A DNA stretch of 64,000 nt from positions 815,159 through 879,158 of the forward strand of contig NW_003314320.1 in the NCBI RefSeq assembly GCF_000143415.4, written 5' to 3'. The DNA comes from Selaginella moellendorffii (taxonomy: Eukaryota > Plantae > Lycopodiophyta). Below, piece by piece: positions 14,407 to 64,000 of this stretch. A program made the translations under genes and the position numbers. Every line of letters starts with the position of its first letter. Position 1 is the stretch's first letter. The notes under the pieces are model-generated. The model had not been told where the DNA came from. It searched no databases and saw only the letters and a program-made list of their open reading frames with translations.

Positions 14407-17400
14407 TCAAGGATTGCTCCTAGAGTGCCTCTGGAATTTTGGGAGACCTTTTAGCCTTTTTAGGAGGCTTTGGATGCTTTGGCCTCTTGATAGCCTTGCA
14501 GTGCTTGGGTTTCTTCTCATGTTTGTTTGCCTCTTCAAATCGATGACAGCTCCACTCCGGCGCATGCTTGTCTGCTTCAAAATCACTAGTGAGCATGGAT
14601 TGGAATTCAAAAGTGAAAGAGCATACCGGCAGAGACTGGCTGCGTTGTCCAATGGTTCGCGCAATTTGTAAATGTGGAGGAGAGTAGAACCATCACCAAC
14701 AACAAAACAGCATATCCCATGTCGAGAAGAAGCCCCGATTGAGAAACTTGAAAAGTTTCTAATATACAGTAGAGCCTACCATCATAAACCAGTCAGAAAT
14801 CCAATAAACAAAAAACTTTCGATGCGTACCGATTGATTGGCCATAAGCACGGAATTGAGCTTCTCTGTTTGCTCTAGCAACCTGTCGTGGGCTTTCATTT
14901 GATGAGGTAGAGGTTGTCAATCTGGCTTTCGTAAATCCAGCCTGAGCCTGGAGCCATAGTTTATTCACAAAAAAGAATTATAAAAAAAACGAAAGTAAAA
15001 GAGAAAGCTTACCAGGCGTTCCTGCCACCTTCTGCGAAGTGATAATTGCATCTGGGTTTCATCGTTGACTGCTAGTGCGCCTGTCTCTTTGTCGCTTGCA
15101 AGTGACACTGTTACCGAATTCAGGTCCGAGTTTCCAAGAGCCGCAGAAAAAGTTTGATCCTCAACAGCCGAATTGATGGAGAAAAGAGGTAATGCTGCCG
15201 AAGTATACAATGTTTAGTAATCAACACAAAAGAAGCTTACCTTTGGCTTGAAAAGCGTTCTGTAAGACGTCAACAACGGCTAGCTTCCTCCGCTTATGCA
15301 CTGGAGCAGCATTGTCTGCACTGATCCTGCAAGCTTTCTCCAAAGCCGCCATCGCTTGTATGGCCTTATTCCTTTCGAGGTTTGCACTCGTTTTGATGTC
15401 TGGTTTGAACAAGTCCAGCTGTGATATAGAGGACGAGAGGTTCTCAGTTTGCGCAGCCAGCACTAAAGGATGCCTTTCGCTTAGCAAATCCATACGAAGA
15501 GTCGGGCCATGTGCTCGCGAGCCTGTCATAAAGCTTAAAAAGCGAAGCAAGCCAGAGAAACAGATAGACGTACCATCTGCTCTGAGTCGAACCCAAACCG
15601 TGTCCATGAGTTTATATTCTCTGTCACACCGTCCATCTGTAACATCCTGAAAGTTCTAAAAAAGTCAGAAGAGGAACACATCGGATACAAATAATTTACA
15701 GTAATTTTTATGCTTGTCTTCTGTTTGATTAGGCGATATTGTTTCTCTGACGTCTCAGAATGCATTTCAGGTAATATAACTCGCCCATTTTTATCCTGTT
15801 GAAGAAATAAGCAGTAATTTGAGAGAGAAAAAAAACGACTTACCTCCAGAAGCACGAGACCACGGAGATCGTATTTGGGTACGAACACCATAATACCCTT
15901 CGTTGTGACACCGATGACCTGATAGTTCCAAAAGTTAAGCTTATGCATTCGGTTTTTGTTTCTGCGTACCACAGCAAGCTCTGCTTTGGCTTGTTTCTGG
16001 AGAAACATCAGTAAATAGAGCTCATTGCATTCCTTCTGAGCCCGCTTACTGGTTCTGTGCTTTTCATTCACGTGTTCCGCGACCTTCAACAAAAACTTAA
16101 TTCAACCATCACAGAAATTCCAGTTTTTACCTCCTGAAGCTCAATAGAACTCATTATATGTGGAACTTTGACAATGCCAGACTCTAGGTTTTGCTCCTGG
16201 CACGCTGCTATAAGCATCCGGTGCGCAAGGATGTCAGCATAGCGCCGTATTGGTGACGTGAAGTGTGTATAAAACCTGAGGTTGTGTTAAACATGTCCAA
16301 GGTAGCTTGATACTTACTCTAGCGCTAATCCATAATGATAGAAATGAGAAGGCTCTAGATCCTCGCCAGTAGAGAAATATTCTGCCTACACGAGGAAACT
16401 ATAACATAAAATGTGATCAATGTTTTCGTTACATTTTTTACCTCTGACATTGCACGCGTAACAAGAGCTCTGAAGGCACGCTATTTGTGTGTAAAACCCA
16501 CAGTTAGATAAGTTCACCCCCTAAACTGCCAATGTACCTCAACAACAAAATCGCCACTATCGCGCATACGGTCCAAAGAAGCTGCAAGTTGCTGTAGCAT
16601 GGGAGTAAGTGCTAGTAAAATATCGTGAATATTCTTGCCTTGTTGCTTGAAACGTCCAAAACAAATCCTCGCGCTTCACAGCACTGCAATGAACAAAGAT
16701 CCGATATAGGAAGAAAAAAAAAAGCACTCTGGCTAACCTCTAGCAACGTTGTGAAGCTATCAATCTTTGGTGGAGAATGTTTCCGAAGAAGTGCGCAACT
16801 GGGAAATGCTCTGCATGAAGTACACTTTAAAAACAGATCTAGAATTTCACTAAGCTTACCGGTAGATCTTCTCACCAACACAAGCATTGGCATAAATCAT
16901 CATCTCCGCAACTATCCAATTCATCTGATAATAAACTGATCAAATGACGATAATGGCGGAAAAACCAAAAACTCACAGGTAGCTCAACTTTCGTTTCCAC
17001 TTGCACAGGCTCTCTTCTCTCATCAATTTCGAACTTTAGTTCCGTACTGGCTAATTCCAAAGCACCATTGAGCCGCCTAAATAAGCGTCTGCTCTGAAAT
17101 GTAATGTCAACTAGGAAGTTGGAGGCAATTACCATGTTAGCTTACCTGAGCAAAAGTACCAAGCAGAAGGAGGTCACTTTGTAACTGGGACAGATCATTG
17201 GAGCCGCTCTTAATTTCCCAGCCGGGAAGTAAACGTTTTCCCTCCATAATAGTTTCAGCTTGAGCATAGAAGAGCTGAAAGCGAGGAACAGTGTCAACAC
17301 ATAAAGAATACCTGAAATTTCACACCTGGTATCGAGAACGTATTATCGTTCTTCCAAACCATGTTTTGACAACTTCAAAATTGTTTTGGCGGTCCAATGT

Positions 17401-19888
17401 CCATATTACACTTACAGCCAGCCTATCTTTTCCTCCAACTAACGAGCAGAGATTTTCACTGTAACAGATCAAACTTTCAGGGAGATAAGAAAAATTATCA
17501 AAGCTACCTTAAAACTGAAGGAAGCATATGCCAGCTTTTTCCAACCATATAGACAGTGGTTCCGCGAGATCTAGCCTCGAGGTCTAGAAGACTTCCTTGC
17601 TTCACAAAGTATGAAACGTCAGCTATATGGACTCCTATCTGGAATAAACGAAAGGATTATGCACGTATTCCAAGTAGTGACGGATGGATACCTCGACCAT
17701 GCCATTCTCCAGATCACTCACTGACAGGACATCATCCACATCCTTGCTTCCAGGAGGATCAATGCTGAGAAGAAAAGAAGAAGTGACACAAGTCAGCCTG
17801 AATGCCTGGTACCTGCAGCTACGATGAGAAAACCGGATATCTCTCCGAACGGCAAATTCTTCTTCTGGTATACTCCACGGGTTATCCAACGAATCCTCAG
17901 GAAGTTCCTGCAGCGATCTGATGCTGCGATGAGTAGGAAATAAGAAAAGAGGAGACCTTACAAATTGCTAAATGGAGCTACCGAGATTCCATTTTCCACC
18001 AGTATAGCGTTCAGTTCGGCATTCAAATCGCCGATAGGACCCAGAGATCGCACAACATGGCCCCTTGGAAATCTCGAGTCAAGTTCCCAGTTATCTATAC
18101 GCAATATAAATCTTTGATTGGATAGACGTAGTCCTTGGCGAGTGCTAACCTCGACCAGAGGAATGCGCTTGTCCATTGGTACGCACAATAAGCGTTCCTG
18201 CCTGCACTTTTGTAACATATACACACTTAGTTTCCATAAAAAAGGCTTACCTCGAAGCGGTTAGAAAAGCTTCATCTTCTTCCAAGAGACAAGCGACGTA
18301 GTCTCGTTGGTTCCTTTGTAATATGCCAACGACCTCTCCAGAAATAAGAGCATCATCAGATAAATGTCTGCTACCTTCCTCGTCGTCCAGCACATCTTCA
18401 TTGAGTATGTCTTCGTTTTCATTTTCCGTGAGTCTTAGCTTGCAAGTTTTTACCTGTGGCATAAGAAGATTAAGACACACTAATGGAGGATAAACATACA
18501 CTTACTACGACTGTATCCCCATGTATCGCCCTGTTTTGGAGTACTCGACCAGCAACAACAATTTCCAGCCGCGATGCCTCCCCTTTATTACTGCACATGA
18601 TACTCCATGAGACTGGTCATCAAGTTAGTCTAGAGAATCTACCTAGGACGAACCAATGCTTCTGATGGTGCGTGACGATTAACAAAGAAGACACCCACCC
18701 TCAAGTCCCCTCTCGAGATTCCAGCCTCCAACGAAATTGCTGTTCAGCAAGAGACATACTTGTAAAGCCATCAGATAAAAGAACATGACTTACTTGATAG
18801 ATGCTCTTTGTACAATCCCTTGCCTCCTCCGGACGGTGGCATTCTGCCATCACTAAGTTTGGCTTTCACTTCAACTGCTTCTATTATTGTGGCAGACTGT
18901 AATTGAAAAAAAACAGAGAAAGAAAATGATCGAGAACGGCCAAACAAAGAGAACTCACCAGCGATGTGAAGAGGTCAGCCACAGAAGAATCGTGATTCCA
19001 ATACTTTGAAAAATATGTACCGGCTTCGAGAACCTGTAAATCAGAAAATTACTCGCCAGCTTTCGCGTAACTATCAGCTCACTTCAACAGTTGTGCGAGA
19101 GTCGGTTAAATTTCTACCGGAATCCGTGGACGTCAAACCAGTTAGCAGCACCACCGGAACACCTCCGTTGATGTGATTGGCAAACCATACTGTGACTTCT
19201 TTCAGATAATTCGAAGAAGCCGTTTCGCAGCGTGATAGACAAGTATATATGCAATGCTGATCGTCAAACACAATGTTGCATCGCCTGTGGTCAGTAAAGA
19301 TCGATCTGAACAGATTATGTAGCTTTAAGAACATCCTCGAGAAACCAAAAACGATAAATTTACCGCAGCCTTCGCCAGCTTCGTTGGCCTAAGTTTTCTT
19401 GCACCTTCAATGCATGACACATAAATGGTCTCATGAACAAAGCCATTCCCGAAAAGGAAGCAGAAAAAACGCACCTCTTTCAGAACGGACGTAAGAAATA
19501 TCACAGCAGAGAATTGCGGAAGCTCCAATATCTCCCAGAATTGGAGAACAGCATCAGCATTTGGAAGCTAGAGCAGAAATCCAAGGAATTAATCAAACAA
19601 TGTAGAAAGAAGAAGGAGGAGGAGCTCGCTTCAGTATTACCAGGTAATGCGATGCGTCGGGAGGTAAACGAGGCAAATGCGAAGCACACGAGGAACATAG
19701 AGGACTGCCGCAGGGAATATCATCCCGCAAATAAATCTCCTCCGCCACGATCGAGATCGCTTTGGATCGCCTCTTGAACTTGCAGCGGCGATCCGCCTGA
19801 GCAGCGCCAAGGCATTTAGGATGAGGATCGATCGATCAGCGGCAGTGGACTCACCTTGCGCGCTACCCACACCGCCATGGCGACTCAT
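14407..19888 (-). CDS. DIS3/RRP44-family RNB 3'-5' exoribonuclease (DIS3-like), many exons
   Basis: [15 protein letters not shown] catalytic motif (~17720-17765), [18 protein letters not shown] (~16212-16265), CSD motifs ([26 protein letters not shown]); start ATG 19888; exact exon chain not fully resolved. Confidence 0.85.
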
Positions 19889-19917
19889 AAACCCTAGAGA
19901 AATTTAAATTTTATTTA

Positions 19918-20779
19918 TCATTGTTGGAAGGGAGAGTTATCAAAATCGCTGGCCGAGAAAGGCTTGGCACTGGGCTTTAGAAACTCGGGTCCATTGTCAT
20001 GGATGTTCTTGCAAAGCGAGTTATACTCGTGGAGCGTGGTTTCCAGGATTTGCTTCATATCTTTGACATCGCTACGAAGCTTTCCAACTGATGAAAATGA
20101 AAATAAAGAGACCAAAGATTGAAAGGAGGTAAGCAAACCTTGATCGAGATGCGAAGCAGTAGTTCTCATCACCGAGGCCGAATGTCCCAAGCGCTGGAAC
20201 AATTTGAGAGCTAATTCCTCCACTGCCTCGATCCTGTATCCCAGATCTTCCTGTTGATCGCATCCATCACGAAAACTTAGCAGCCTTCTTTCCTTCACGA
20301 GAATTGAAAGGCTCGGACCTGGCGCTTGCAAAGCTTTGTGGCATTTTCCTTTTGCCACTCGTGGTACAACGAAAAGAGCTCGGCAGTCGCGGTGGCGTCC
20401 AGAGACACTACAAGAAACGTAAACAGTAACTTAAACCAGGATAGAGGATAGACCAAGTCTCTATGGTGTTTGCTCACGATTCTCAACCGAGGTTTGGCTG
20501 GGACTAGACTGGCCGAGGAGAATCTCCTTGAGTCCGCTCTCTGGCGAGGAATGGCCCGGGAGCAACGCTCCAGCCTGACTTCATCGGAAGCAAATTCCAA
20601 TTTGAAATGGACAAAGCTTACAACTTTGAGCGAGTGAAGCGCCTTCAAATTTGGATCCACGCCACCGCCCTTGCTCTCGGAGATTGTTGTGATCTCATCC
20701 TGGGCGGTAGAAAATAGAAAAGAAAACTCAAAGCGACAAACCGAAGCACCTTAAGCGACCTGGACTCCGTCGCCCCCAT
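19918..20779 (-). CDS. Small coiled-coil protein with N-myristoylation motif MGATES, BORCS5 (BLOC-1-related complex subunit 5)-like
   Basis: ATG GGG GCG ACG GAG TCC at 20779; spliced exons give DPNLKALHSLK, ELFSLYHEWQ, QEDLGYRIEAVEELALKLFQR; family call from recall. Confidence 0.6.
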
Positions 20780-26512: not shown

Positions 26513-26640
26513 GGGGGGGGGGGGGGGGGGTGGGGGGCTAAAAGTACCCCTACCGGGGCGTTAGGCCACGGGGTTTCCCCTCCGTGGCCCAAAAAAAGTG
26601 TTACACTCCAGGCTTGGGATTTAAAGGGTTTTAAAATTAA

Positions 26641-26740
26641 NNNNNNNNNNNNNNNNNNNNNNNNNNNNNNNNNNNNNNNNNNNNNNNNNNNNNNNNNNNN
26701 NNNNNNNNNNNNNNNNNNNNNNNNNNNNNNNNNNNNNNNN
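26641..26740. other. Assembly gap (100 N); preceding poly-G stretch looks low quality
   Basis: N run. Confidence 1.
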
Positions 26741-28324
26741 TATTTGAAAATGACGTGAAATTATACGTTTTTTGTCTAGAGGGCTAGACATATCTGGGGC
26801 ATGGTGACTAGCGCGGTGACTTTATGTCCAGACTGAGTCCATCTGGTTGTATAATAAATCTCATTGTCAAGGTGAACAAGCCGAATCTGAAGTTAAAGAA
26901 GAGCGATGGCATGCACGCACACACTATTTGTTTGTTCATTGAGCGTGTGGTGAGCTTTCCAAGATGAACGTCATTCCTATTAGCCAGACATATAACTTAA
27001 TGGTGAGAACATTTAGATATTATTCAATGTTATCTTTTTCTAACGAATCTAATTGTGAAGGTGTAGCAAAAGGCATTGCTAGTCTGGAGAAGTCATTTAA
27101 CTCATTTGACCCTTAGTGTATTTTCATGAAACTAAATAACATTCATATTATTAAGGAATTTCTCTAGTACCTTTTTTTTACGACATAGAGGCTTGCATTT
27201 CTTTCAAAGGTGATTTAGTAAAAGGCCTGAGGGCACATGCCATTCTATTTCTCAGACCGGTATTAAAATATACTAGTGCAAAGGGAAAAAGGTATTTGGT
27301 GATCAAGTAAATGGCACGAGGGCACACGCCATTATAAGCCTAAGCGCTAGTGGACACCTCCTTTTTGGTACTCTCAGCGGTACTATCATCCTTCTCCGGG
27401 TCAGTTGTTTTGCTTTGGATTGTTGTCTCTGACGTTACTGGGGCGTTCTCGATAGTTGTTAATGTTGCCGTTTGTTCAAAAAAATGATCACCTAGAGTAT
27501 AGTACGGGGAGTTTGGAAGACTTATATATTCTACATCTTCACCTATCTCCTTCTCCATCTCCTTTTCTGCCTCACTTACAGATTTTGTGCTTGCCATGAG
27601 AACGCTCTTCACCCTAAAATATGGAGTTCGTTGTGTTATAAAAGGAAACCAACACACACGTTGCAAGGGAATGATGGTACATAAAACACGTAAGCCCACA
27701 ATATGGGTTTATGTGCCATTAATATGGGCCACACGCCATATTATTAGATTTATGCACGTGTGATTGGTAAATGCATATGTCATATCATCTTTGTTTTACC
27801 TCACACACTATATCAGGCCTAATGAACCATATCACATGTGCGCACATGCTATATATATGGAGAAGTATTATGCAAGGATAGAAAAATTCAATGCATGATT
27901 GTGGAGAGCAATGGCATGAAGCCACATGCTAAATAACATTTTAGAGAAAGAATTAAAATAAAAACATGCAAACAGTACTGAGTGGACCAAGACTTAGAAG
28001 TGCACAATTGAATGAGGTATTTCTAATAAATATTTCACTCACCTCATATAGAAATGGCTACCACTCTCAAATGGCGTATCGCCTCATACCATCACCTCGC
28101 AATTTGTTATAACAATCCGATGAATTCATATTCGGCTTGTTCACCTTAAACTTTAAGTAAGATTTGCTAGAACAACTAAGAATTTATACTTGTTATTTGT
28201 ATCATCTCACCTAGGAATGGCGTAAGGCCACATGCCATCACGCCTCCTCTGATTCAGATTTGGATTGTTCACCTTGAAATAAAATACATTAGAAACTTAG
28301 TAAAGGAATATTAATGAATCTCAC

Positions 28325-31300
28325 CTTGAACCCGGGTTATGAATGCTCTTGCTACATCTCTTGCATGGTCTGGCAAGGTGATGGTGGCACTCTACTTCCG
28401 CATCCAACCATGCACAACATTATCCACCGATATGCTCATGCTGGGATCCCTTGGATTCAGCACCCATCTCTTTTCTAGGCAATCCTTCGTATATCCGGAA
28501 CTTGGCTTGAACCACTCCACAGTTACATTGAAGGAGTTAGTTTCCGCGTCCTCCTCTGCATCAGTGATGCAGCGCCCCACCCATATCATTTGTTTTTTAT
28601 TACTGGGTCTGACAAGCACGACCATTCCTTTGCAGACCTGTACTGGATTGAATGCTGAATCCGGCTTCTTGTTCCTCGGCCCACAATAGTGATCCTCAAC
28701 ATCGTTATCTGTCACTGTATTTCCAGAGGACATTGTTCCGCTACTATTTGGTGCTCTGGGTTCTGGCCAAAAGGACTCTTCCAATTCTTCATATACAACC
28801 GGCCCATTTTGGATAGCAGATATAATCTTCTCCCAGTATTCAAGCAAAGGCTTGCACCTCTGAAAATAGGATTCTCCACCAAACACCAACCCCCTCTTCC
28901 AGAAGGCAATATGCTGTCTAATCCCGGCCACTATACTTTCCTGGTCTTTGAGTCCATCCGGGTGCATCGGCCGTGGGGAACCCTGAGGAATCATAGGTTC
29001 CCCAGTTATGGGATCTCTCTTGAAGAGTTCAATGTCGTCCACTGGCAGCCACACTATGTCCCATTCTCTCATCTTGTACCTCATCACTGGAGCACCGTCA
29101 CACATGCTAAAATGAAATTGAAGAGGCTTCGAGTGGCCAATCAACGTTTCGGATCTGTCCCTGATGGAGCCTCTTACAAACCTCTTAAAGTCTGGAACCT
29201 CTGTCAGAAGTGTAGCTTCAACAGTGCCTTTGATGCAATTTTGGAATTCATCGTAGAGTTGTGGGAGGGTGAGGACATTGGATCGCCGGAGGGACTCTGC
29301 CAGGTGACTGAACATGGCATCGACGTCTTCATGAGTGTGCCCAACCATGAGAAAGCCAAGTGTAACCGTTTCAAATATGCCTTTGGCAACAAGCATCACC
29401 AAGTACGCGAAGACATACATGTTTTTGTTCTCACTGCCAGCATTGTCTGTTTGGAGCAGAAGATGGGGTGGAAGGCCACATCGGCCGCAAGAACTACCTT
29501 GAGATTCTGCTTCGTTTGGATGAGGCTGTGCATTCACCAGGCGACCAGCCTCGTCGGAATGGCATGAGGCCTTACGTGATAACCCTACAATTTGACGGCC
29601 AACATATTCACTGGGATGGCATGGGGCCCTACGCGATACTGCAAGCCTTTGCTCCTCCTCCAGCTGAACCCTGTATGGGGTTCGATTGACAAGGGCCTTA
29701 TGCAAGGGTTGGCCGTTCAGCTCAGTCTGCGCATTTTGCAGAGACCTTAAGTGTTTTGCTAGGGACGCAATCATCATGTTTGCACCCCCGCCACCCCATA
29801 GAGGTACAAAGAAGTTCCCATAGTTCTGGGCACCATGCCCATGAGCAATTATGCCAAACAGAGACACAGGCAGCTGTATGGATGAAGAGATTGCCTTAGG
29901 GGCAGGATTGAGTCGAGGTAAGCACGTCTTTTTCTAGTCCATTTTGTCGTGGATGATGCAGAGGTAAGAGTCAGGTCTCTCCATGGAGAGAATCCTGTTA
30001 TGATAATATGCAGTTCTGCAGCTTCTCTACTCGATGTTGTGGTCGAGCCGCCTTCTAACTAACGTCTCTCGCTCTTGAGCGCTGCAAGAATTCTTTGACA
30101 AAGCCATTTTGATAGCAGTGCACTCGTCACACTTTGAAAAGCTGGAGTACTTTCCTATACTCACATCCCTGAACCTGTTGCTCCACAATCTACTAAATCT
30201 AGATTGGCTCAGCTTCCTGTAGCCATTACTCTGGAGTTCCCGATTCACATCTTCCAATATGGCCCCCTTGGTATACATGGAAGGGAGAACTCGTTGGGTG
30301 TCTCGTGTTCCATCTTCCAAGAGGCGGGTTTTATGTGGTTGTTGCACGCTACATGTCTCAACAAACCTCTTGAAGATTGCCTCTCCATATACAACATGAC
30401 CCCTGGTTTTGTGCGTACCGTCGTTCCCATGGACTGCCTGTTGAACCCTTTGTTCCTCGAACTCAGTTTTGATTCTGTAGAATGTGGTTCGAGGGACTCC
30501 ATAAATGATTCTCCATGCCTTCATGCAGACCAAACCCCTCTGGAAGACCATGCCCCCCACCTGATGTTCTGAAGCATCAACAGATGACCGTAATGCCTCA
30601 TACACAAAATTGCGAGCTGCCTTCCAGGACAATGTCTTGTATCTTGCTCTCTCCTCTTCAATAGCATCCCAATCAGCATGTTGACAGCACCTCCTTTTGC
30701 AACAAGCAACTGTTGAGACCATTCGAACCTCCATCGCCATTTTCTGCCTTTTCAGTTCGTTGCTCAGATCCCTTTGGCTGCGCTTTAGGAAGGTGTACTT
30801 TCTTTTCCCATGAAGAGATGTTCTGTCATCAGTTGTAGTGGTGTTTGATTGTGAATCCTTCACATTCTCAAACACTAAGTGCCTCAATTTCCACCGCACA
30901 ATGCTTCCAATAGTCAGACTGTTTTCTTCTGTGTCAACAACCTCTAAAATCGCAACTCCAATATCATCCCAGCCCAATTCTTGATTAGCAACCGCATCTC
31001 TTGGATCGACAACTGTGGCTAAGCCCTCAGCTACCACCTCCCCCTCGGGGTTGTTTAGAAACACCTTTGCCTGAATCCATGTAGCACGGTTCTTAAGATC
31101 CACGGAGGGAACATGCGTCGCACTTGCGCTGTCCCTAACATCTACTTTCTTCTGAAGATTTTTCAAGGCAACAACAACATTTACCCCGACGACCATCTCT
31201 CCTCGTTCAATAGCGACCACATTCCCATCGAAGACAGTCTCTACTGATACAGCAGCATTGCCTTCCCCAAACCTTTGACAGTGTATAACAAAGTTCCGAT

Positions 31301-31379
31301 CCATAGACACAAGGGTCCCTTTTGCAACTCTCTTCCCACCATTCAAAATGTAAACCTTTTCCCCAACCCTGAAGGCCAT
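28325..31379 (-). pseudogene. Sola-like (DUF7869-type) DDD/E transposase, ~1000 codons in one frame, with three premature TAG stops
   Basis: Motifs CCKRRCC, VCMKAWRIIYG, HGN, FSKCDEC, CIIHDKMD(*)KKT.LP, LLLQTDNAGSENKN, FLMVGHTHEDVDAMFS; stops at 30027, 29934 and 28392; splice acceptor just before ATG 31379; donor at 28324. Confidence 0.8.
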
Positions 31380-31567
31380 TCTGAAAGTGCAGAAAAGAAG
31401 TTAAGACCATACAAAAAATGATTGGAGAATGGCCTAAATCATAACATACCAAACAACCTCAATAGCATGAGGCCACATGCCATTATTCAAACATGCTATT
31501 GACACCCACGTGAAATTTCGCATTCACAAAATTGGCATGAGCCCTCATGCCATTAGTGGTACCACTA

Positions 31568-31759
31568 ATGGCATGAGGCCTCACGCTATCTTTGGCCCCT
31601 GCTAGCCTGTTGCTATATTCCTTTTGCCTTGCTACAACTGTATATATTTTTGTGTGCGTGACTAGTCACCCATACAAAAATATATACAGTTGCAGCAAGG
31701 CAAAAGGAATATGGCAATAGGCTAGCAGGGGCCAAAGATGGTATGAGGCCTCATGCCAT
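31568..31759. repeat. 192-bp near-perfect inverted repeat capped at each end by a 22-bp palindrome
   Basis: Arms TTTGGCCCCTGCTAGCCT...TATATATTTTTG and CAAAAATATATA...AGGCTAGCAGGGGCCAAA; centre GTGACTAGTCAC at 31663/31664. Confidence 0.95.
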
Positions 31760-32447
31760 CTTGATAAACACACAGCTGCAGGCAAGTAAAAACATACATG
31801 ACAATACACTAGCCATGAAATTGCAAGGGCCCAAGATGGCATGTGGCCTCATGCCATTTCTAAATGTGGTCCTAAGCCATTCCATGGTGAACATACTAGG
31901 AAGCACAAGTGCCGAATATCAAGAGGAAGCGGTAGCCACACCAAAGACAGTGCCGCTCGCAACACCGCAACTACTCGTAGCGCCGCTCGCAACACCGCAA
32001 CTGCTCGTGGTGCCGCTCGCACAAACTGCCACTCGCATAAACTGCCGCTCGCAATGGCGCTCGCAATACCGCAACCGCTCGTAGACGCATAAACCACAGC
32101 TCACAATGCCGCTTACACAAGCACCGCTCACTGCGCTCAGCGAAACCAAGAACACGGCACACAAAAATGATAGACCTAGGAATGAGTTCGAGAATTCAAA
32201 AATAACACACGCTTGAACGTCACATCAAATCCTCTGACAAACCAGATCTTATGACTCCTCTGACAAATTTTAAATTGAGTAGATTCTAGACTTTGCTGTC
32301 GGAGGTTGAACTTTGTCCCATCATGTCCTTGCCTCGATCTAGCTGTGCCATGTCAGTGATTCGAACTTTGCCATGCCATGTCAGCGATCCGCGCCAAGAT
32401 TATTCGCTGTGTAAAGGAATAATTATGCTGTGTGTGTACGTCCATTT

Positions 32448-33800
32448 ATGGCAATATAAGGCCACACGCCATTCAAAGAATAATGCTAGTCGAGCATTTT
32501 TTGGTGCATTTTTGGGTTCAAAATTGCATGAGCCCACACGCTATAAAGTTTACCTATACCAAAAATAGAAACAGCTTTATTTACTTGGGAATTTAAGTGG
32601 TTGAGGCATTTTTAAACTTACAAACACATGCCCTACTTACATTCCTTTGGTTGCTTAAAATTCAAAAATATTATAAACCTTTCTTTTTGCATTTTCAATG
32701 TTTTCAATTATGGTTTTTGATTTTCACAGGACCAGCCTAGTAATCTATTTGCATCCCGTTATGTTTATAGCTAGCTTTCGTTTGTCCCCTTCGCTAGCCT
32801 GAGATACATTTGCTCGGCATTTGCCTCTTACAGCATTTGCCCAGAAAGGGCATCTTTCTTCACGCAGCATTTGCCACATGTTTAGGGTTTAGGGTTTAGG
32901 GTTTAGCAATTCAGTAGCTTGATAAACATGCAAATACAAAACTTGATGCAAAATCCTTTGATATGTCACAATGCCCCTAGGACCATAAACACATTTCAAT
33001 AGAGAGGGTCCTTTCATTTCATAACTCCTTACGTAGATCTTGGTGAAACTAGAGTTAGTGAAGTTAATTTCTTGTGATCCCGCATCTGATTGTGATGTCC
33101 CTTTGCAGTGTCGATGGAAAGGTCAATGCACACCAAACTGTAAAATCTTGGAGCAAAATAACGGTCGGATCTATGGCAAATGCCCCTGAAACATTGTAAG
33201 GCTCGTGTGGTCTCATGTGGTGTCCGATCGAGATGCTTCTTTGCAGGGTCATCAAGAAAGACATTGTATACCATTTTGTAAAATCTAGTTGCGATCTAAC
33301 GGTTGGATCTCCAGAAAACTCAAAAAAATCTCACGCTTGTCAGAATATCCTAGGAATATACTCCTATGTGCCCCTGAAAATGGCATGCGGCCTCACGCCA
33401 TTCAAGAGATAACGCCAGATGACACCGAGAATTTTTTGGTGCATTTTTTGGGTTCAAAATTGCATGAGCCCACACGCTATAAAGTTTATCTTTGCCAAAT
33501 AGAGAAAAGTTTATCTGTGTCATGTAAGGTAGTTACAGTCCTTTGTGCTCGGCATCTGCCTCTTGCAGCATTTGCACTGAAAGGGAATTTTTCTCCATTC
33601 AGCATTTGGCCCTGAAAATGGCATGCGCCCACACGCCATTCAAGGAATAACGCTACAGGACGCCTGGATTTTTGGGTTTAAAATGTTTAGGGTTTTTTGG
33701 GTTTTTTCAAAATATTTTGGGTCCAACGTTTTTTGGGTTTCTTTGGTTCAAAATTGCATGAGCCCACACGCTATAATATTGATTTGAGAGAAAAATAGAA
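32448..33800 (+). repeat. Three dispersed direct-repeat modules, each holding two palindrome copies, in the divergent intergenic region
   Basis: CACGCCATTCAA...GGTTCAAAATTGCATGAGCCCACACGCTATAA at ~32460-32570, 33380-33505 and 33618-33800. Confidence 0.85.
32881..32906 (+). repeat. Interstitial plant telomeric repeat (TTTAGGG)3 + TTTAG
   Basis: Direct read. Confidence 0.9.
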
Positions 33801-34496
33801 ACAGATAGAATTTCTTTATTTAGCTGAACATCTGCCATTTTTGGAAATACAAGATGCTTTGGAATATCCAATCATACATGGTATAAATATAGCGAGGGTA
33901 TTAAATGATATCCCAATCATGATCTTTCTTTTGGATTTCGCGTGCATGCAGTCCAAGGAATGATGACGTTGCGGATTTCTTTTGGATTTTGCGTGCTTGC
34001 ATGCGTGCGGCAATCCAGAAATTAATGGTGGCGCCCAAGTCTGAGGAATGATGACGTGGCGGGATTACCAACCGTTGTGACATTTCGCGCGTGTGAGGTT
34101 AGGTTTTGCATTTTGCTTCATCCTCGCGCTCGCACACTCGCGCTCACGCTCGCATTGCGCTCCCACTCGCGATCACGCTCACATTTGCGCTCATCTACCT
34201 TCTCTACAGGTTTCTCGTGTGCATCGGCGTCCACTCGCGCTTGCATCACACTCGCGCTCGCATCGCGCTCGTGTGCATTGGCGTCCACTTCAAGACACAC
34301 CCAGTTTGTAACTTCGCCGCCAACTCCGCCGCCACTCCGCCACCCACACGCAGCCCACTTGGCGTCCCCGGAGATTTCAGCGCCACTCTCCAATTGTTAA
34401 GTGGCAGAGTAGCCTTGCTACTACGATCCGCTGCACACACAGTGCACATTCGCCAGCGAGTCCGGCCTCGATTGTCACACCTCCATTTGGCTTCAA

Positions 34497-37400
34497 ATGG
34501 TAAGTCGTTTAGGCCAAGTAGAAAATGGCATGAGGCCACATGCCATTCAGTAGCAACATTGGCATGCACCGATTGAGCTCTCGAGTGCAGTCCGGTTACA
34601 GATGGCGTGTAGCCTCACGCCATCTTAGGATGTAGCCTCAAGACATCTGATGCAGTGGTGAATGGCGTGTGGCTTCACGTTATTTCCAGCTGCTAGCTTT
34701 TCATCTGTCAACTCTAATTGTTGTGCATTTCTGAACAGGCGAGGAATTGCGTTCTTCTTCCAGCCACTGTCAATGTGGATGTAGAGAAGGGGGAGGAGCT
34801 CACCAGTTGGACTTTCGGGATGGAAGGCGAGGATCTGAGGCTGTACAACACAGATGGTGGGAGAAAAGAATGCATGGGGATCCTCATCCAAGTGACAGAC
34901 ACTCCATGCAGTTCCATGCAAGAATATGGACTGGCACTTGTGGTAGAGACAGCGTCCGCCTTCAAGATCCACCTTGCACATCCTAGCGGCTTCCTCGAGG
35001 GGGGCAGCAGCTATGAGGAATTCCTAGAGGGAGCTAGGGAGAGGTCGTCCAGGAGGCCCACAATTTCAAAGACGCTGCGGGTCTATAAAGATCACATGGA
35101 ATCCACGGACCTCACCTATGGCGATGTTCAAAAACTATATTCCAACATTGAGCCATTGAGAGTGCCTCCAGTTCGCGAAGCAAAGGGGAAGGGGGTCGAT
35201 CTGGAAACTACCCCGAAGCAGAAAAGGGTGGTCAAGCTCAAGCCGACGTCCGACTCTGCTGCTCCAAAAAAGAAGCTACTCGGTGATGCCATTGCCTCGG
35301 GTTCGAACACTACACCCACCAAAAAGAAGAGCCGCAAAGAGCAGAAAGAGTAAGAAGAGGCAGCAAAAATCATCGCAGATAATAGTACTTGTTACTATTC
35401 CAACAAAGTATATACAATCGACATGAGCCATATCGACATCCAAAGCAAATACAACCACAGGCTAGTATCTGATGAGTGGGTGGAGAAACTAAAGCAGAAG
35501 ATGTTGGCAAGTCCAGTAACACCCGACATCGCAGACGTGATCCCCTACTACCGAACAATGAAGGGCGAGACGAGGTTTCCAGACTTGATCAATAGGAAGG
35601 TGTTGGACGATCAGAACATTCGGTTCTATGCCGTCTCCGGGCAGCATTCTAGCTTGGCGATGCAAGAGATAGTTGTGGATATTATGGTGGGCGAGGAGGT
35701 GAAGAAAGTCTTCAAGACAAAAGTTGTCTGCCTGATAAAAAGCAACTCGCCCCTCCGATCTATCATATCCATCTCCCATGCGCAGAATGTCAAGCAAGAA
35801 ACGTGCTACAAATCGGGTCTGCACGAGACATTGGCACGAACACGGAAGCTCTGGGTTCAACTGAAGAAGCCACAAAAACCAGGACAAGGACGTGCACTAG
35901 CAACTAGCGCCTGGCAGGTAAGCCTCGTTGCATGTGGTATAGCATGTGGCCTCACGCCATTTCCATTGCAGGAATTCTCGAGTCTTCTCTCGAAAACACT
36001 GGGGGTCAATGACACACTCAGCATTCATAACATTCTACTCGCGACAAAAGTTGTTTTTGACAAATGGGTAGATGTGCTGAGGAGGTACCATGACGAGGAG
36101 TTTCTAAACTCAATGGGTGTGGAGGACGGCCGGAAGCCCAATGATTTGAAGCTCAACGCCTTGCGTTTCTCGGGGTCTTTAGACGACGACGACCTTCTGA
36201 CAGTGGCTAATGCTCTTCTACGTGGTGAGGTAGTCTTCAACAAGACCAAAATGACTCCCGGCCATATTGTGACATACGAGGACTTGTGCACGACTCTGAG
36301 AGCTCGTGCGCTATTGAAGGATTGGATCTTCAATAAGTGGCCGTGGAGAGGGTGAGCATCGACACCACGCAAGAGATGATGGAAGAGCTGGACTTGTCAA
36401 ATGAAGACATCGACGACTACGTGAAGGGGGCCCCCAAGTTCATCGATCTGCTGCGGGATGCCACGAAAAGTAAAGCTGAGAAGTTGGATCAGTATCCAAA
36501 TTTCATTAAGAGGGATGTCAACCGCCGGCTTCAGAAACAGCTCGACCCCGCAGCAGAGGCCTATCGAGAACCTTACCAGGTATACGTGAATTCGGATGAG
36601 GATCAAAGGTGGAGGAGCATTGTTTCCCGCGGAGATGAGCAGGTCAAGAACATCTTTTGTGTGATGGACTTCACAAACGAGGAGATCACTCATGCAGACG
36701 AAGTCAGCTCCATCATTGACTTAATGGTGGGACTTGCGGAGGTGGAATCTTCAGTCCACTATATGATCTACGACTCCGAATCCTATCACAAGTTCTGGAA
36801 GGCCTTGAATGAGGTGAAGGCTCGGTTGAAAGGCAAGGAGATGCAGGAGATCCATGGGATAATGGCTAAGAAGAAGATACCGACGAATGTCCGCATCTTC
36901 ACACTCGCCCTTGTTATTGGTCCTGCAGCAGAGTGGGACTGGAGTGACTTCCCAGCTTCGTTCGACAAGGCTGATCGAATTGATATGAGGGAGGTCAATT
37001 TACCCGTGCTTGAGGAACTGAAGACGGCTATGGAGCTTTCGAATCCAAAGAAAGCTCCAGGTGCAGCATGGGAAATGCTCAGCTGGGTCGTCAACGCAAT
37101 AGCACCTGCTTCCGACTCCAAGGGCAAATGCGTTGTCGAGTACAATTGCGGCGGACTATTCTTTCGAGCCGCACTACTCAAGGGTGTCCCGTGTGTTGCG
37201 GTGACAAACTCCATTGAAGAGGTGACTTCAATGAAGCATATAATTACAGTTGCTAAAGAAAAACAGTATCTTCTCTGCGAACCTGGTGAGTACGCACTTT
37301 AAGTTTAAATGTTATCTCACAAGCTCTGTATGCAGGAGCGTGGCCACCCCCAGATGCTGAAACGGCGTTAACAGCTACTGTTGGGCCGAGCTCACAACCT

Positions 37401-40042
37401 GCACAAGGTAAGGTCACGTGAGGCCTCATGCCATTTTGATTATAGATCGTTGTGAATATTCAGACACGAGGACTGAAAAGCGTACTGGTGGCGCGTCGAA
37501 GAAGGACAAACAGACAAGCAATAGGAAAAAAGGAGGTACAAATTATATTTGCAATGGTGTGTGGTCTCATGCCATTCCTTGCAGGAGACACTTCTTCAAA
37601 GGCAAAACAGGCAAGCACCAGCCAAGCTCAAACTGACAGTGGTCATAAAAAGCGAAAACACGTTGGACAGTCATCGGGATCAGAGGTGTTTGATTCGAAA
37701 AGGAAGAAGGGCAATGAAAAGATGATAGGTAATGCCTCGCGGTCACCACCTCCTGACTCAGATTCCTATGGCGGACTCCCCTTCCCCAATCTCAATGGAG
37801 AGGTACAATGGATGAGGGATGCTTTTCAAGTCAGGGCCACGTTTTTCTCATCTCGTCGTCTTCAAAGGGTGCAAGAACGTGTAGAAACCATGTTAAGACA
37901 GTCGGGTGAGGATACGGTCCTAGATCATGCACTAAAACAGGCTATGGATGTCTTGTATTTTGAGATGGAGACTCGGCCAGATGATTTTCCCAAGATGGTC
38001 CTGGAAGAACAAGCCATCCAGCCTGAGCAGCCTATGGAAGAAATGCAGGAGGGGGATGAGGAGCCAGAGAAAGATAATGAGCAGGAAGAGCAGAAGGAGG
38101 AAGAGGAGGACAAAGAAGAGGAGGACGAAGAAGAGGAGGACGAAGAGGACTTGGATGGTCCTCACAATGGTGACGATCACAATAACGACGACGACAATGA
38201 TGACGATGATGGCCAGCCTGAGGTGGCCAAAGAGCAGCGGAGGAAGGTCATACAAGACAAACCATCAGGTAAATAATAGTACATCCATTCCTAACCTTTT
38301 ACCATTTCTAACATTGTCCATGTAGGTTGCAAAGCAAATGGTAAGTAGAGATTATTCAGTTGAATTAAGATACAAACTCTAGCCTTTAGTGTCGAGGAAG
38401 GATAGTGCCAAGCAAGGGTCGAAACGTATGTCCAATCCTTCAGAATCAGCAGTGCGCCCAAGTGATATCGGTCCTAGTTCCTCAATAGCAGTTGATGGTA
38501 AATACAGTATAGTCGATTCAATGTGCTAATGAGTTTGTTTTTAGTAGCCAGTAGGGAGGATACCATCTCAATCGAAGGGAGATATTTGGACATGCATATG
38601 GATCCACCAATGGACTCTACTTGCCTGCAAGAGTCATCAGAGCTGGTGGAGGCTACTATCCATATCAACGCCAAGCAAGCTGACCACGCTCCACTTGATG
38701 CTGCCCATACCACTGAGTCAATCTTGTCCACGTATCCAACTGACGGTGACCAGGCGCCATTGGACCCGCATGAGGCCGCCCCAGCCGCCAAGCCGGTCGT
38801 ATCCTCATTTCCAATGGACTCAACGTGTGCCCAATCGTCTGACTACGCGCCATTGGAACCTCCCTACACCACCCCTGCTGCCTGTTCGGTCATGTCCACT
38901 TTGCCAACGGAGGCACCAGCTGAAATGGCGTGTGATCACACGCCATCGGAACCACCCCATGCCACTGTTGAGCCAGTTGTACCAGAGTCTACAGCTGAAA
39001 TGGCATGTGCCCACACGCCATCAGATGCGATTGACCCCACATTGCAGAGGAGAGTATTTCCGCCCTTCACGTTTCCTTGACCAAAACCCTCTCAACGACC
39101 ATCGGGAGCACCATTCGCTAATATTGTAGATGGTAAAATTGACTTGTACCATTTTTTATGCTGACGCATTTCATTTCAGAGTCACGGCGAAGGTACTGTA
39201 TCATTTTTGATCTGAACGGTGTCCTTTTCTCCCATGAGCGTGGCTCGTCCTTGAATGTCACTGCACCCTCCAAAGCCTGCGGTCGCAAGTTGGTCAAAAG
39301 AGACAGATTCACATTAATCACACGGGAGAAACTGCGGGATCTAATAATGACCATGCGACACTTAAAACAGAGGGTTGGGTTCAATTTGCAATTGGGAGTT
39401 TGGACATCCATGATGCGCCACAATGCATTAATGTTGCTACAGATGATGCACGATCAGACGCTAGTAATATTACCATTTGACTTTCTCCTAACGCAGGAGG
39501 ATTGCTTGACTATGGTCCATGTGAGGGGTAGCAAGCCCATCTTCGTCAAACCAGAGGCTGTAGTGATGAACCGGACTGCTAGGTCAAGTGAAATCCTCAT
39601 CATCGATGACTCGCCGATTAAAACTGCAGCGAACACGCACACATATGCAGTGCACCCCATCTCTTGCAGTATGGAAACTAGGGAGAAGAAACCGTATGTT
39701 CTGGGTGACCTTGCAAAACGGCTTGGAGCGATGGTGATAGAGAACCGGCCAGTCCAGGAGGTGGCTGCAGAAATCAACCAAATGGCATATGGAACGGTAT
39801 ATCAGAAGCCATTTGATCGGACAGACACCAGTCATCATTTATGGCATGTATATTGTCTAGCCAAGCACTATCCGCATCTCCATAATCTGCTCAACCGGAT
39901 GGGTTCTTCGACCACTAAACATGAGCGTGGACGTATTAGAGAAGAGATGGCATTACTATTGGGTTTAAATCCTGATAGTGTGGAGAGTGATGAAATTCCA
40001 AGATTATTGTATAAGCGTTGGAGGCAAAAAATAACAGTCTGA
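34497..40042 (+). pseudogene. 10-exon ~1640-codon fusion gene: ParB/Srx-like + degenerate N4/N6 DNA methyltransferase-like + acidic linker + FCP1/NIF HAD phosphatase-like; two premature stops and one frameshift
   Basis: Exons 34497-34499, 34739-35917, 35972-37285, 37336-37407, 37446-37535, 37585-38268, 38326-38340, 38390-38497, 38545-39132, 39180-40042. All introns are GT-AG and frame-consistent (the last seven are phase 1). Stops TAA 35351 and TGA 39078; 1-nt shift near 36336. Confidence 0.75.
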
Positions 40043-40484
40043 GATGGCATGTATTTATTTAAAAATGTAACTTATTATGGCATGGGGTTCCATGCCATTG
40101 TATTAATATTAAAAGACAATTCTTTGAGAGGATTTGCATTATACTAGAAGTGTTACAGCATGTTATTGGAAGTCTACGAAGTTGTTTTATTAATAAGGGG
40201 AAAGTAAAGATTGAATGGGGACTTGGGCTCCACCTAGACTCGGAGCAACTGAGCCAATATTAAAAGGATGGAAAGAAATTAGACGACGATGACAAAGAGA
40301 AGAGAGAGGTGAAGCAGTGGCAGGGGGAGGAGAAGTGATTGAGTAGACATTTCCTTGTTTAAAATAAAATGGCATGTGCCTCAATGCAGTTGAATTTTGT
40401 TATATTTATATACTATATAAAGGTTTGGAAACCTTATTTTACAAGTGGGATAATGACAATTCCCACTTTAACGAAATAGAGCTT

Positions 40485-42149
40485 ATGGTGATAAGGTTCA
40501 GTTGTCCAAAGCTCGATTGGACGTTCTAGAAGGACAATTGGCATAGACCAATGCCCTGCTAGAGACTCTCGTACGTAAGTTAAAGCATGACGAGAAGCGG
40601 AAGAAAAGGCGAAAGACTGCGGATGCTGGCAGCGCAGAAGGTGCGGACCCTTCGGCAGGGATTGAGGTAAAACTAAACAAGGTCGAACAAACCGAAATGG
40701 AATCAGTCCCTCAGGCAATTCCTAAGTACAAACCAAAGCCTCCACTGATCTTCAAGGGAGTGAATGACTATAAGGTGGTGGAGGATTGGTTTTACAATAT
40801 GGAAGACTACTTCTGAGCATTGTAGTTACCGAGCTTGAAAAAAGTTCCATATGCAAAACCATACTTGGGAGATAATGCCAAGTCTTGGTGGAGAATGACA
40901 GAGGCCAACGAAGGACCGGTGGCTACTTGGGAAATGATGAAGGCGAGGATCCACGCGACTTACGTTCCTCCAAATGCTACTCTACACCTAAGGGATGAGT
41001 TGAGTAGGCTAAAGCAAATTAGAACCATTCAAAAGTATGTGAATGGGTTTATGGCAAAGAGGATACTTGTCACAAATATTGCCTTTATATCAAGGTTGCA
41101 AACTTGGGCTCGTGGTGAGGTGATGCATTGAAACTTGACCAACTACAAGGAAGCATTGGATGCGGTTATTAAGGTGCATTTCAATGATAACCTGCGAAAG
41201 GAGAATATGACAAGATCGAGGTTGACGTTTAGCAAAGGGGCCAAACCAAAGGGAATATATAACAAAGGGAAATTCAAGAAGAGTTTCTATAAGAATGAAT
41301 CCTCGGGGTTCCAGAAAGGTAGATCCGGTGGCCAGCAAGCAAGTACGTGGGGGAGTAAAAAAAAAAGAGATAAACCCACAAATAAGAAGGTCAAGTTTGC
41401 TAATAGTGTGGGAAACAACGTATGCTATAACTGTAATGAAGTGAGACACTTTTCGAGGTAACATCCCTACCTAAAGAAGGCCAGAGCTAATATAGCCATT
41501 AAGTTGGGTGAAATCTAAATTGAAGTACGTGATCCAGTCCCTAGCTCAAAGTTATTCATTACATGAGCAACTTTGGTAGAGAGTCGTTCGCGACATCTAC
41601 TAGCTCTCCGAGGGAAGCTCAGAGGTAGCTTTGTTAAGATCCTTATTAACATGGGTGCTTCGAATAATTTTGTGGCTAAACATAGTCTGGCAAGCTGGAC
41701 TAATGGTGTAGTGGCTGGGTGAACTAAGGACGATAGAGTTTGTTTAAGGTAGCTAAAGTACCAATGAGATACTTTAACAAGCAAGAGTTGAAGTAGGGAC
41801 ATGGAAAGTAGATATGGATTTCACCGTGTTGGACATGGTGGGATTTGACGTGATCTTTGGGATGGATTGGTTCAATCGGTTCATAGTAGCCCTGCATGGA
41901 CAAGGTAGAAACCTTGTGGTACTAGCGAATGCCCAAGGAAGAAGATCCAAGGTGGAGGCCTAGGATCTAAAGGTAGGGCAATGCAAGGCCAAAGATTCCT
42001 ACCTAAACCTGGTGTCCACGAGAGGACAACTCACTAAAGGAACCAAGGCAGCATTCTTGTGCTTACTCTTGGTGAAGAGTCACTAAAAGACGGGAACGGA
42101 AGAAGTACCTTTAGTGATCTAACGGGTGTTGGACAATTCCAGAATACCA
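40485..42149 (+). mobile_element. Family B gag-protease fragment (degenerate)
   Basis: VEDWFYNMEDYF, LGDNAKSWW, CYNC zinc knuckle, LINMGASNNFV, DVIFGMDW; 41330-42149 parallels 47445-48272. Confidence 0.85.
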
Positions 42150-63594: not shown

Positions 63595-64000
63595 AAGCTC
63601 TATTTCGTTAAAGTGGGAATTGTCATTATCCCACTTGTAAAATAAGGTTTCCAAACCTTTATATAGTATATAAATATAACAAAATTCAACTGCATTGAGG
63701 CACATGCCATTTTATTTTAAACAAGGAAATGTCTACTCAATCACTTCTCACTGCTTCACCTCTCTCTTCTCCTTGTCATCGTCGTCCAATTTCTTTCCAT
63801 CCTTTTAATATTGGCTCAGTTGCTCCGAGTCTAGGTGGAGCCCAAGTCCCCATTCAATCTTTACTTTCCCCTTATTAATAAAACAACTTCGTAGACTTCC
63901 AATAACATGCTGTAAATGCAAATCCTCTCAAAGAATTGTCTTTTAATATTAATACAATGGCATGGAACCCCATGCCATAATAAGTTACATTTTTAAATAA
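63595..64000 (-). mobile_element. Terminal 406 bp of a second copy of the Sola-like element
   Basis: Reverse complement of ~40055-40484 with two small indels; includes a palindrome copy at 63957. Confidence 0.92.

Follow-up and report, generated by a model that had tools for sequence, protein, structure and literature searches.

A dispersed palindrome in a Sola1-like transposon

We analysed a 64,000-nucleotide stretch of the Selaginella moellendorffii genome (assembly GCF_000143415.4, contig NW_003314320.1, positions 815,159 to 879,158 of the forward strand; hereafter the window), which contains a Sola1-like DNA transposon at 26742..40482. Its left end falls within an N gap (26641-26740), and its right end, ...AACGAAATAGAGC, lies at about 40482. 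The element encodes a transposase on the minus strand (27340..31383) and one or more divergent accessory genes on the plus strand (34497..40042), and copies of a 22-bp palindrome are scattered across it. The transposase carries DUF7869 (PF25273, E 3e-42), which we take to be the Sola1 transposase, and the element is probably a Sola1-type transposon.

A pattern search allowing at most 3 mismatches detected 24 copies of the palindrome, all in 27222-39021, where 0 were expected and the maximum over 100 shuffles was 0. With a symmetrised position weight matrix (PWM) we counted 30 copies in 26742-40484 (2.2/kb) and 2 further ones, at 63689 and 63957, in the end of a second copy of the element (right end at 63597..64000, minus strand), which is 94% identical and inserted in the long terminal repeat (LTR) of a retrotransposon. 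The PWM was trained on sites of the same element that it counts, but it found 0 matches in the other 49,751 bp of the window (host genes and retroelements) even at the loosest threshold. Third-order Markov simulations (n=30) gave at most 1 PWM match at score 10. The length is constant at 22 bp and mean identity to the consensus is 88%, with 2 of 30 copies perfect and 36 of the 76 mismatches being C-to-T or G-to-A. The first copy (26906, 165 bp from the N gap) and the last (40369-40390, ending about 92 bp short of the right terminus) each have 6 mismatches. The exact motif had 0 matches in prokaryotic genomes, and the palindrome had no Rfam match. The original prediction of a 22-bp palindrome dispersed from beside the gap to about 100 bp from the terminus, present in the second copy and absent from the host genes and retroelements of the window, was therefore borne out, and no equal density exists elsewhere in the window. 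Its estimate of about two copies per kb agrees with the mean, but the spread is uneven, the non-coding DNA on the left and between the genes having 4.2/kb and the long coding exons 0.4-0.7/kb.

As located with the PWM, seven palindromes (26906, 27222, 27311, 27831, 27911, 28071 and 28217) lie in the left non-coding region and among the 3' introns and small exons of the transposase gene, two (29559 and 29616) are inside the reading frame of the transposase, at a loop whose sequence is hypervariable from one homologue to another, and 11 (31462, 31532, 31568, 31738, 31836, 32451, 32523, 33380, 33459, 33618 and 33753) are upstream of the transposase and intergenic. The accessory gene has three in its predicted first intron (34525, 34602 and 34662, in 34500-34739), three more (35939, 37413 and 37554) that each occupy a separate short intron and two in a low-complexity, probably coding stretch (38925 and 39000), while the last two (40077 and 40369) occupy the right non-coding end. 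The intron bearing the palindrome at 35939 (35919-35972) is backed by homologues that lack these 18 codons. Overall, 26/30 copies fall outside the coding exons as inferred by eye (P 1.5e-6), 14 surround the two divergent gene starts, and the four coding copies are confined to the hypervariable transposase loop and the low-complexity stretch. Contigs of run X20, which may be DNA, cross a predicted intron. At 37743, six contigs of run X1 run into an extra palindrome with a donor-like start that is absent from the window copy, possibly an intron with a motif, or a rearrangement, that differs between family members.

Variation of the arms and flanks

The two arms of the palindrome do not covary. 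Positions 6 and 17 are complementary in 12/30 copies and the W/W positions 9 and 14 in 8/24, and no compensated change was seen among the copies at positions 1-8. Whereas position 6 alternates between A and G, position 5 is C in 90% of arms; among the 60 arms GCATG occurs 30 times, GCGTG 15 times and GTGTG twice, unlike the even split of neutral CpG decay. As the arms vary independently, a double-stranded protein site is favoured over a hairpin. Flanks in common with another copy, from local tandem or inverted duplication, were found for 10/30 copies; for the other 20 the likeness of the flanks is within the 99th percentile of chance and the motif is still kept, indicating that duplication makes the copies and the motif outlasts its flanks. 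The array consists of family-specific dyads under apparent selection, and a dimeric protein site is, on sequence grounds, the best-supported reading of the palindromes. A spacerless 96-bp inverted duplication (31568-31759, 92% complementary) carries a palindrome at each outer end. We also considered an origin of the palindromes from miniature inverted-repeat transposable elements or introners, which we rejected because outside the 22 bp the copies have neither ends nor target duplications in common.

Of the earlier claims on this variation, parts had to be revised. The changes do fall at symmetric positions with the length kept, as predicted, but within a copy the arms are uncoordinated. A dimer site had been contrasted with slippage, and the independent arms, the 20 copies with chance-level flanks and the palindromes that relatives have of their own agree with the former; the contrast was drawn too sharply, however, given the 10 duplicated copies. 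A comparison of motif and flank conservation among element copies had also been suggested, and 0 of the 12 differences between the window copy and the majority of copies fall in 11 motifs, against about 1.2 expected, numbers that are underpowered and too small to decide.

Palindromes in related loci

Relatives were drawn from the best 80 of 144 transposase loci of one scan (64 clusters at 90% identity). In a de novo palindrome test, 9/80 loci exceeded each of 8 shuffles with at least 4 copies of a single palindrome, compared with 2-3 copies in four control segments from the window. L026 and L037 passed this test and were not counted, being AT-rich tandem repeats, nor were the tandem or direct repeats of L015 and L042 counted as arrays, while targeted searches added L002, L003, L004, L007, L014 and L056. 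Arrays are thereby carried by 13/80 loci and comprise six other palindrome types of 16-22 bp that track the transposase clades: L001 (7 copies), L002/L003/L004/L007 (2, 2, 4 and 1), L036/L058/L014 (12, 11 and 1), L045/L056/L061 (5, 3 and 3), L060 (5) and L067 (4). The motif of the window is not among these types, and none of these loci carries it.

These palindromes are found either in the introns of the transposase gene or upstream of it. For the pairs L058-L014, L002-L004 and L004-L007, the sole non-coding BLASTN hits are the palindromes themselves (20-33 bp), and L014 and L058 have an identical 20-mer palindrome (20/20) in an otherwise unalignable, diverged intron. Some arrays, those of L045 and L036, are tandem. 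In L036 (247-731), alternate palindromes end in the splice-donor-like GTAAGT, with a repeat unit of ~160 bp upstream of the transposase. An A-to-G swap between the palindromes of L036 and L058 was examined as a sign of protein co-evolution and rejected, because the predicted recognition helices are identical. Divergent ORFs upstream of the DUF7869 transposase in L044 (118-1596) and L060 (1-552, minus), both cut by contig ends, are candidate accessory genes.

Genes encoded by the element

The transposase gene is broken in this copy, and its exon borders were set by eye. The exon at 31383-30027 encodes two Tudor/KOW-like barrels, a Cys-rich part and two predicted helix-turn-helix (HTH)-like domains, the exon at 29933-28323 encodes the DUF7869 core with GHTHEDVD, the end of a D...D...GHTHEDVD pattern, and probable small 3' exons continue down to 27340. 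Its closest named relatives are from liverworts, and no relatives were found among viral contigs. A model of the N-terminus from 35 sequences reached a predicted local distance difference test score (pLDDT) of 75.4, and a structure search with it matched the barrels (30860-31383) to Tudor/KOW/Agenet-like folds (E 3e-4 to 1e-3). Residues ~328-418 appear HTH- or winged-helix-like at Z 5.7-7.0, which is under the trust level (CENP-B 1hlv, Z 6.0, root-mean-square deviation 2.4, 60 aligned), and a second HTH-like helix pair was seen by eye at 293-315. The top structural matches of the barrels include the readers of histone H3 lysine 9 methylation ADCP1/AGDP1 and the KOW domains of Spt5, and in Pfam the start of the transposase weakly resembles Transposase_23, which is associated with TnpA (E 0.015).

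The accessory gene, interrupted in this copy by a stop at ~35351 and a frameshift at ~36335, comprises a ParB/Srx-like part (35354-35918) followed by a helical part, a degenerate methyltransferase-like part (36337-37270) followed by an acidic linker, and a last exon (39180-40042) that is HAD-like by eye only. The ParB-like part has an Atlas link to DUF3723 (0.96) and 7 HMMER hits; one of these, P0038, is a repetitive artefact and was excluded, and the six others are plausible homologues, five of which carry [DS]GQH. Both this motif and the strand-helix order are seen in the homologues. Atlas placed the methyltransferase-like part with methyltransferase-like clusters (0.95) and N6_N4_Mtase (0.88), and it has a motif-I-like stretch in common with the homologue P0046. 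No part of the accessory gene had a Pfam or NCBIfam match, PDB sequence searches gave nothing significant, word-indexed searches with the ParB-like part gave nothing new, and a fold search of that part with VIA, on a poor model, gave generic helical matches only. By eye, the last ORF (39143-40042) resembles a HAD/NIF-type phosphatase (DLNGV...DD), with no Pfam or PDB match.

Ends and decay of the element

The second copy matches the element up to 40484, and contigs of run X4 leave it at 40482-40485 into differing flanks, with unbroken cover down to 26742. We place the right end at ~40482 because the second copy diverges there into the LTR and the contigs exit there. The right flanks (TTAT, TTCA, ATCA and TTAG) are AT-rich, with the left end hidden by the N gap; Sola1 elements make a 4-bp target site duplication with an AWWT-type preference (PMC3845634). 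The sequence at 26515-26640, after a G run, resembles a corrupted LTR rather than the right end of the element and is probably a poor read end beside the gap, in which case the left flank shown may differ from the site where the element actually inserted. The element belongs to a multicopy family, and the window copy is decayed, with 172 of the ~222 places that differ in X1 being T-for-C or A-for-G.

A proposed self-recognition system

Taken together, the palindromes are quite likely to be bound by a dimer that the element itself encodes. We propose, with a probability of roughly 0.45, that they are parS-like self-recognition sites for the ParB-methyltransferase-like accessory protein, used against silencing. 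ParB dimers bind 16-bp palindromes, and bacterial ParB-parS and Noc-NBS likewise have long dyads in scattered copies, with a ParB/Srx-like protein encoded close by, whereas here we are dealing with a eukaryotic transposon in which no ParA partner was seen, the CTP-binding arginine is apparently absent and the protein has a methyltransferase-like fusion. A dimer of the accessory protein would load on the palindromes as ParB does on parS, might spread from them, and would help keep the two genes of the element from silencing. Palindrome copies would multiply through local duplication and then be retained by selection on the motif.

A comparable gene pair occurs in Sola1-1_Ec32 of Ectocarpus, in which the opposite-strand gene encodes a ParB-like domain and an N4/N6 methyltransferase, the proposal there being that such proteins bind the transposon that encodes them and modify it (PMC12477816). 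From its published description, Sola1-1_Ec32 is a large Sola-type element with a corresponding gene pair, and its 4-bp target site duplications, biased to end in A, are similar to the AT-rich flanks found here (PMC12477816). It differs in having 282-bp terminal inverted repeats with AACCG-CGGTT termini (PMC12477816), whereas the visible end here is ...ATAGAGC, and in that our element has degenerate-looking methyltransferase motifs followed by a HAD-like exon. The available main text of that paper neither contains 'palindrom' nor names a target site (PMC12477816).

By analogy with VANC and with TnpA or AtMu1, binding could promote expression of the element or protect it from silencing. VANDAL21, an Arabidopsis Mutator-like element, has a dense family-specific motif (VANC21/YAGTATTAY) in introns, intergenic and terminal non-coding DNA, spread by local duplication, together with accessory genes and differing motifs in related families (PMC5735166, PMC10398659), all of which is matched here. 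However, the VANC motif is 9 bp long with a single orientation (PMC5735166), against a 22-bp dyad here, and VANDAL elements belong to the Mutator-like superfamily, whereas this one has a DUF7869 transposase; the accessory ORFs had no Pfam match to the VANC domain (DUF1985, DUF287). Binding and hypomethylation were demonstrated for VANC (PMC5735166). The present element may work like VANC/VANDAL, but it is not a member of that system. In Spm and AtMu1, element-encoded tandem-HTH proteins (TnpA in Spm) recognise family-specific motifs that occur in clusters, and they activate their cognate copies; their sites, of which that of TnpA is a 10-mer, lie at the termini, in contrast to the element-wide long dyads described here (bioRxiv 10.64898/2026.08.24.746577). 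The text of that preprint mentions neither 'palindrom' nor DUF7869, and our literature search, with Repbase, some key papers and bioRxiv supplements outside its scope, turned up no account of elements of this kind that carry long dispersed palindromes.

More tentatively, Sola-type transposons from algae or protists to land plants might carry a eukaryotic ParB-parS analogue that marks or shields their own element, which would be a third independently evolved anti-silencing system beside VANC and TnpA. The array provides an explicit candidate site, to which the relatives add six other clade-specific sites, so that the self-binding proposal is open to a simple binding assay. If true, this would add one more superfamily, and plants other than flowering ones, to the known range of sequence-specific anti-silencing, and would yield pairs of a protein and its site in which the recognition sequence is both long and rare.

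Several observations weigh against recognition by the accessory protein. The model of the ParB-like part has a pLDDT of only 39.6, its Foldseek matches to Srx, Noc and ParB are non-significant (E 0.86-2.7), and no HTH emerged in the accessory protein, whose ParB-like part is followed by a helical region in an unreliable model. ParB uses the arginine patch GxxR for CTP binding, and this arginine appears to be missing, the window having SGQHS and all 5/5 homologues that cover the motif having H and then S/T. Active beta-class N4/N6 DNA methyltransferases have intact DPPY-type catalytic and S-adenosylmethionine-binding motifs, but the DPPY motif here looks degenerate, with DFT and EYNCGG by eye in the place of the motifs. 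Clamp sliding and methylation may consequently be lost, which speaks for a protein that binds or shields more than for an enzyme. An insensitive search of contigs of 3-7.6 kb detected no ParB-like gene in the 80 related loci, including the 13 with arrays, and 67/80 loci have no array; many of these are too short, but the long loci L024/L025, L032/L034/L066, L053, L040 and L051 also lack one above shuffles. The palindromes at 28071 and 28217, two of the four 3' motifs scored as non-coding, may fall in small exons. As for silencing, at 31420-33820 the window copy has 12 differences from the majority, of which 9 are of deamination type against 23-26 expected from the whole element (a rough P of about 1e-4 to 6e-4). 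This is a hint, and only that, of local under-methylation in the motif-dense region, because two thresholds (10% and 40%) and different runs were combined in the comparison, and fewer decays near the motifs may simply reflect less methylated promoters.

The transposase also has predicted HTH-like domains, and a transposase dimer could bind the palindromes through these N-terminal domains for activation, autoregulation or transpososome assembly, the main rival reading, which we regard as less probable than binding by the accessory protein. The transposase is the only gene common to 13/13 array-bearing loci and the motif types track its clades, but the loci were chosen by transposase, so that having it in common is built in. 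The AtMu1 transposase binds and hypomethylates its own elements, although AtMu1 and TnpA sites are terminal (bioRxiv 10.64898/2026.08.24.746577), whereas the sites here are not gathered at the visible end, the nearest being degenerate and 92 bp inside. The likeness of residues ~328-418 to HTH or winged-helix domains such as CENP-B would suit such binding, but Z <8 is only suggestive.

Host transcription factor sites borrowed for expression of the element are improbable. Promoter and intron placement would fit them and dyad sites are typical of dimeric host factors, yet 49.7 kb of host genes and retroelements had 0 PWM matches, and related elements use six unrelated 16-22-bp words, so that element-specific recognition fits better than common host factors. 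Very improbable, and already disfavoured, is a neutral by-product in which a chance palindrome was copied by local duplication: the 10 copies with common flanks, including the 96-bp inverted duplication, and the tandem arrays in L045 and L036 would be expected from it, but not the 88% motif identity kept by the 20 copies with chance-level flanks, nor the 20/20 identity between L014 and L058. We consider an RNA hairpin or DNA cruciform, acting for example in splicing or small-RNA production, the least probable of all; several copies do lie near splice sites in short introns, but the arms do not covary, intergenic copies occur too, and Rfam gave no match.

Other features of the window

Outside the element, the window contains a host cytochrome P450 gene (20988-22567) and another gene, rich in introns, that weakly matches Rrp44 S1 (15221-20750), and the rest consists mostly of several Gypsy-type retroelement pieces, all without the motif. 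At the right end of the element, 14 bp inside the terminus, a hairpin (40443-40468; 8 bp with a 10-nt loop) has been preserved in the second copy as well. Between the genes of the element there are also three units of the plant telomere-type repeat TTTAGGG (32882-32905).

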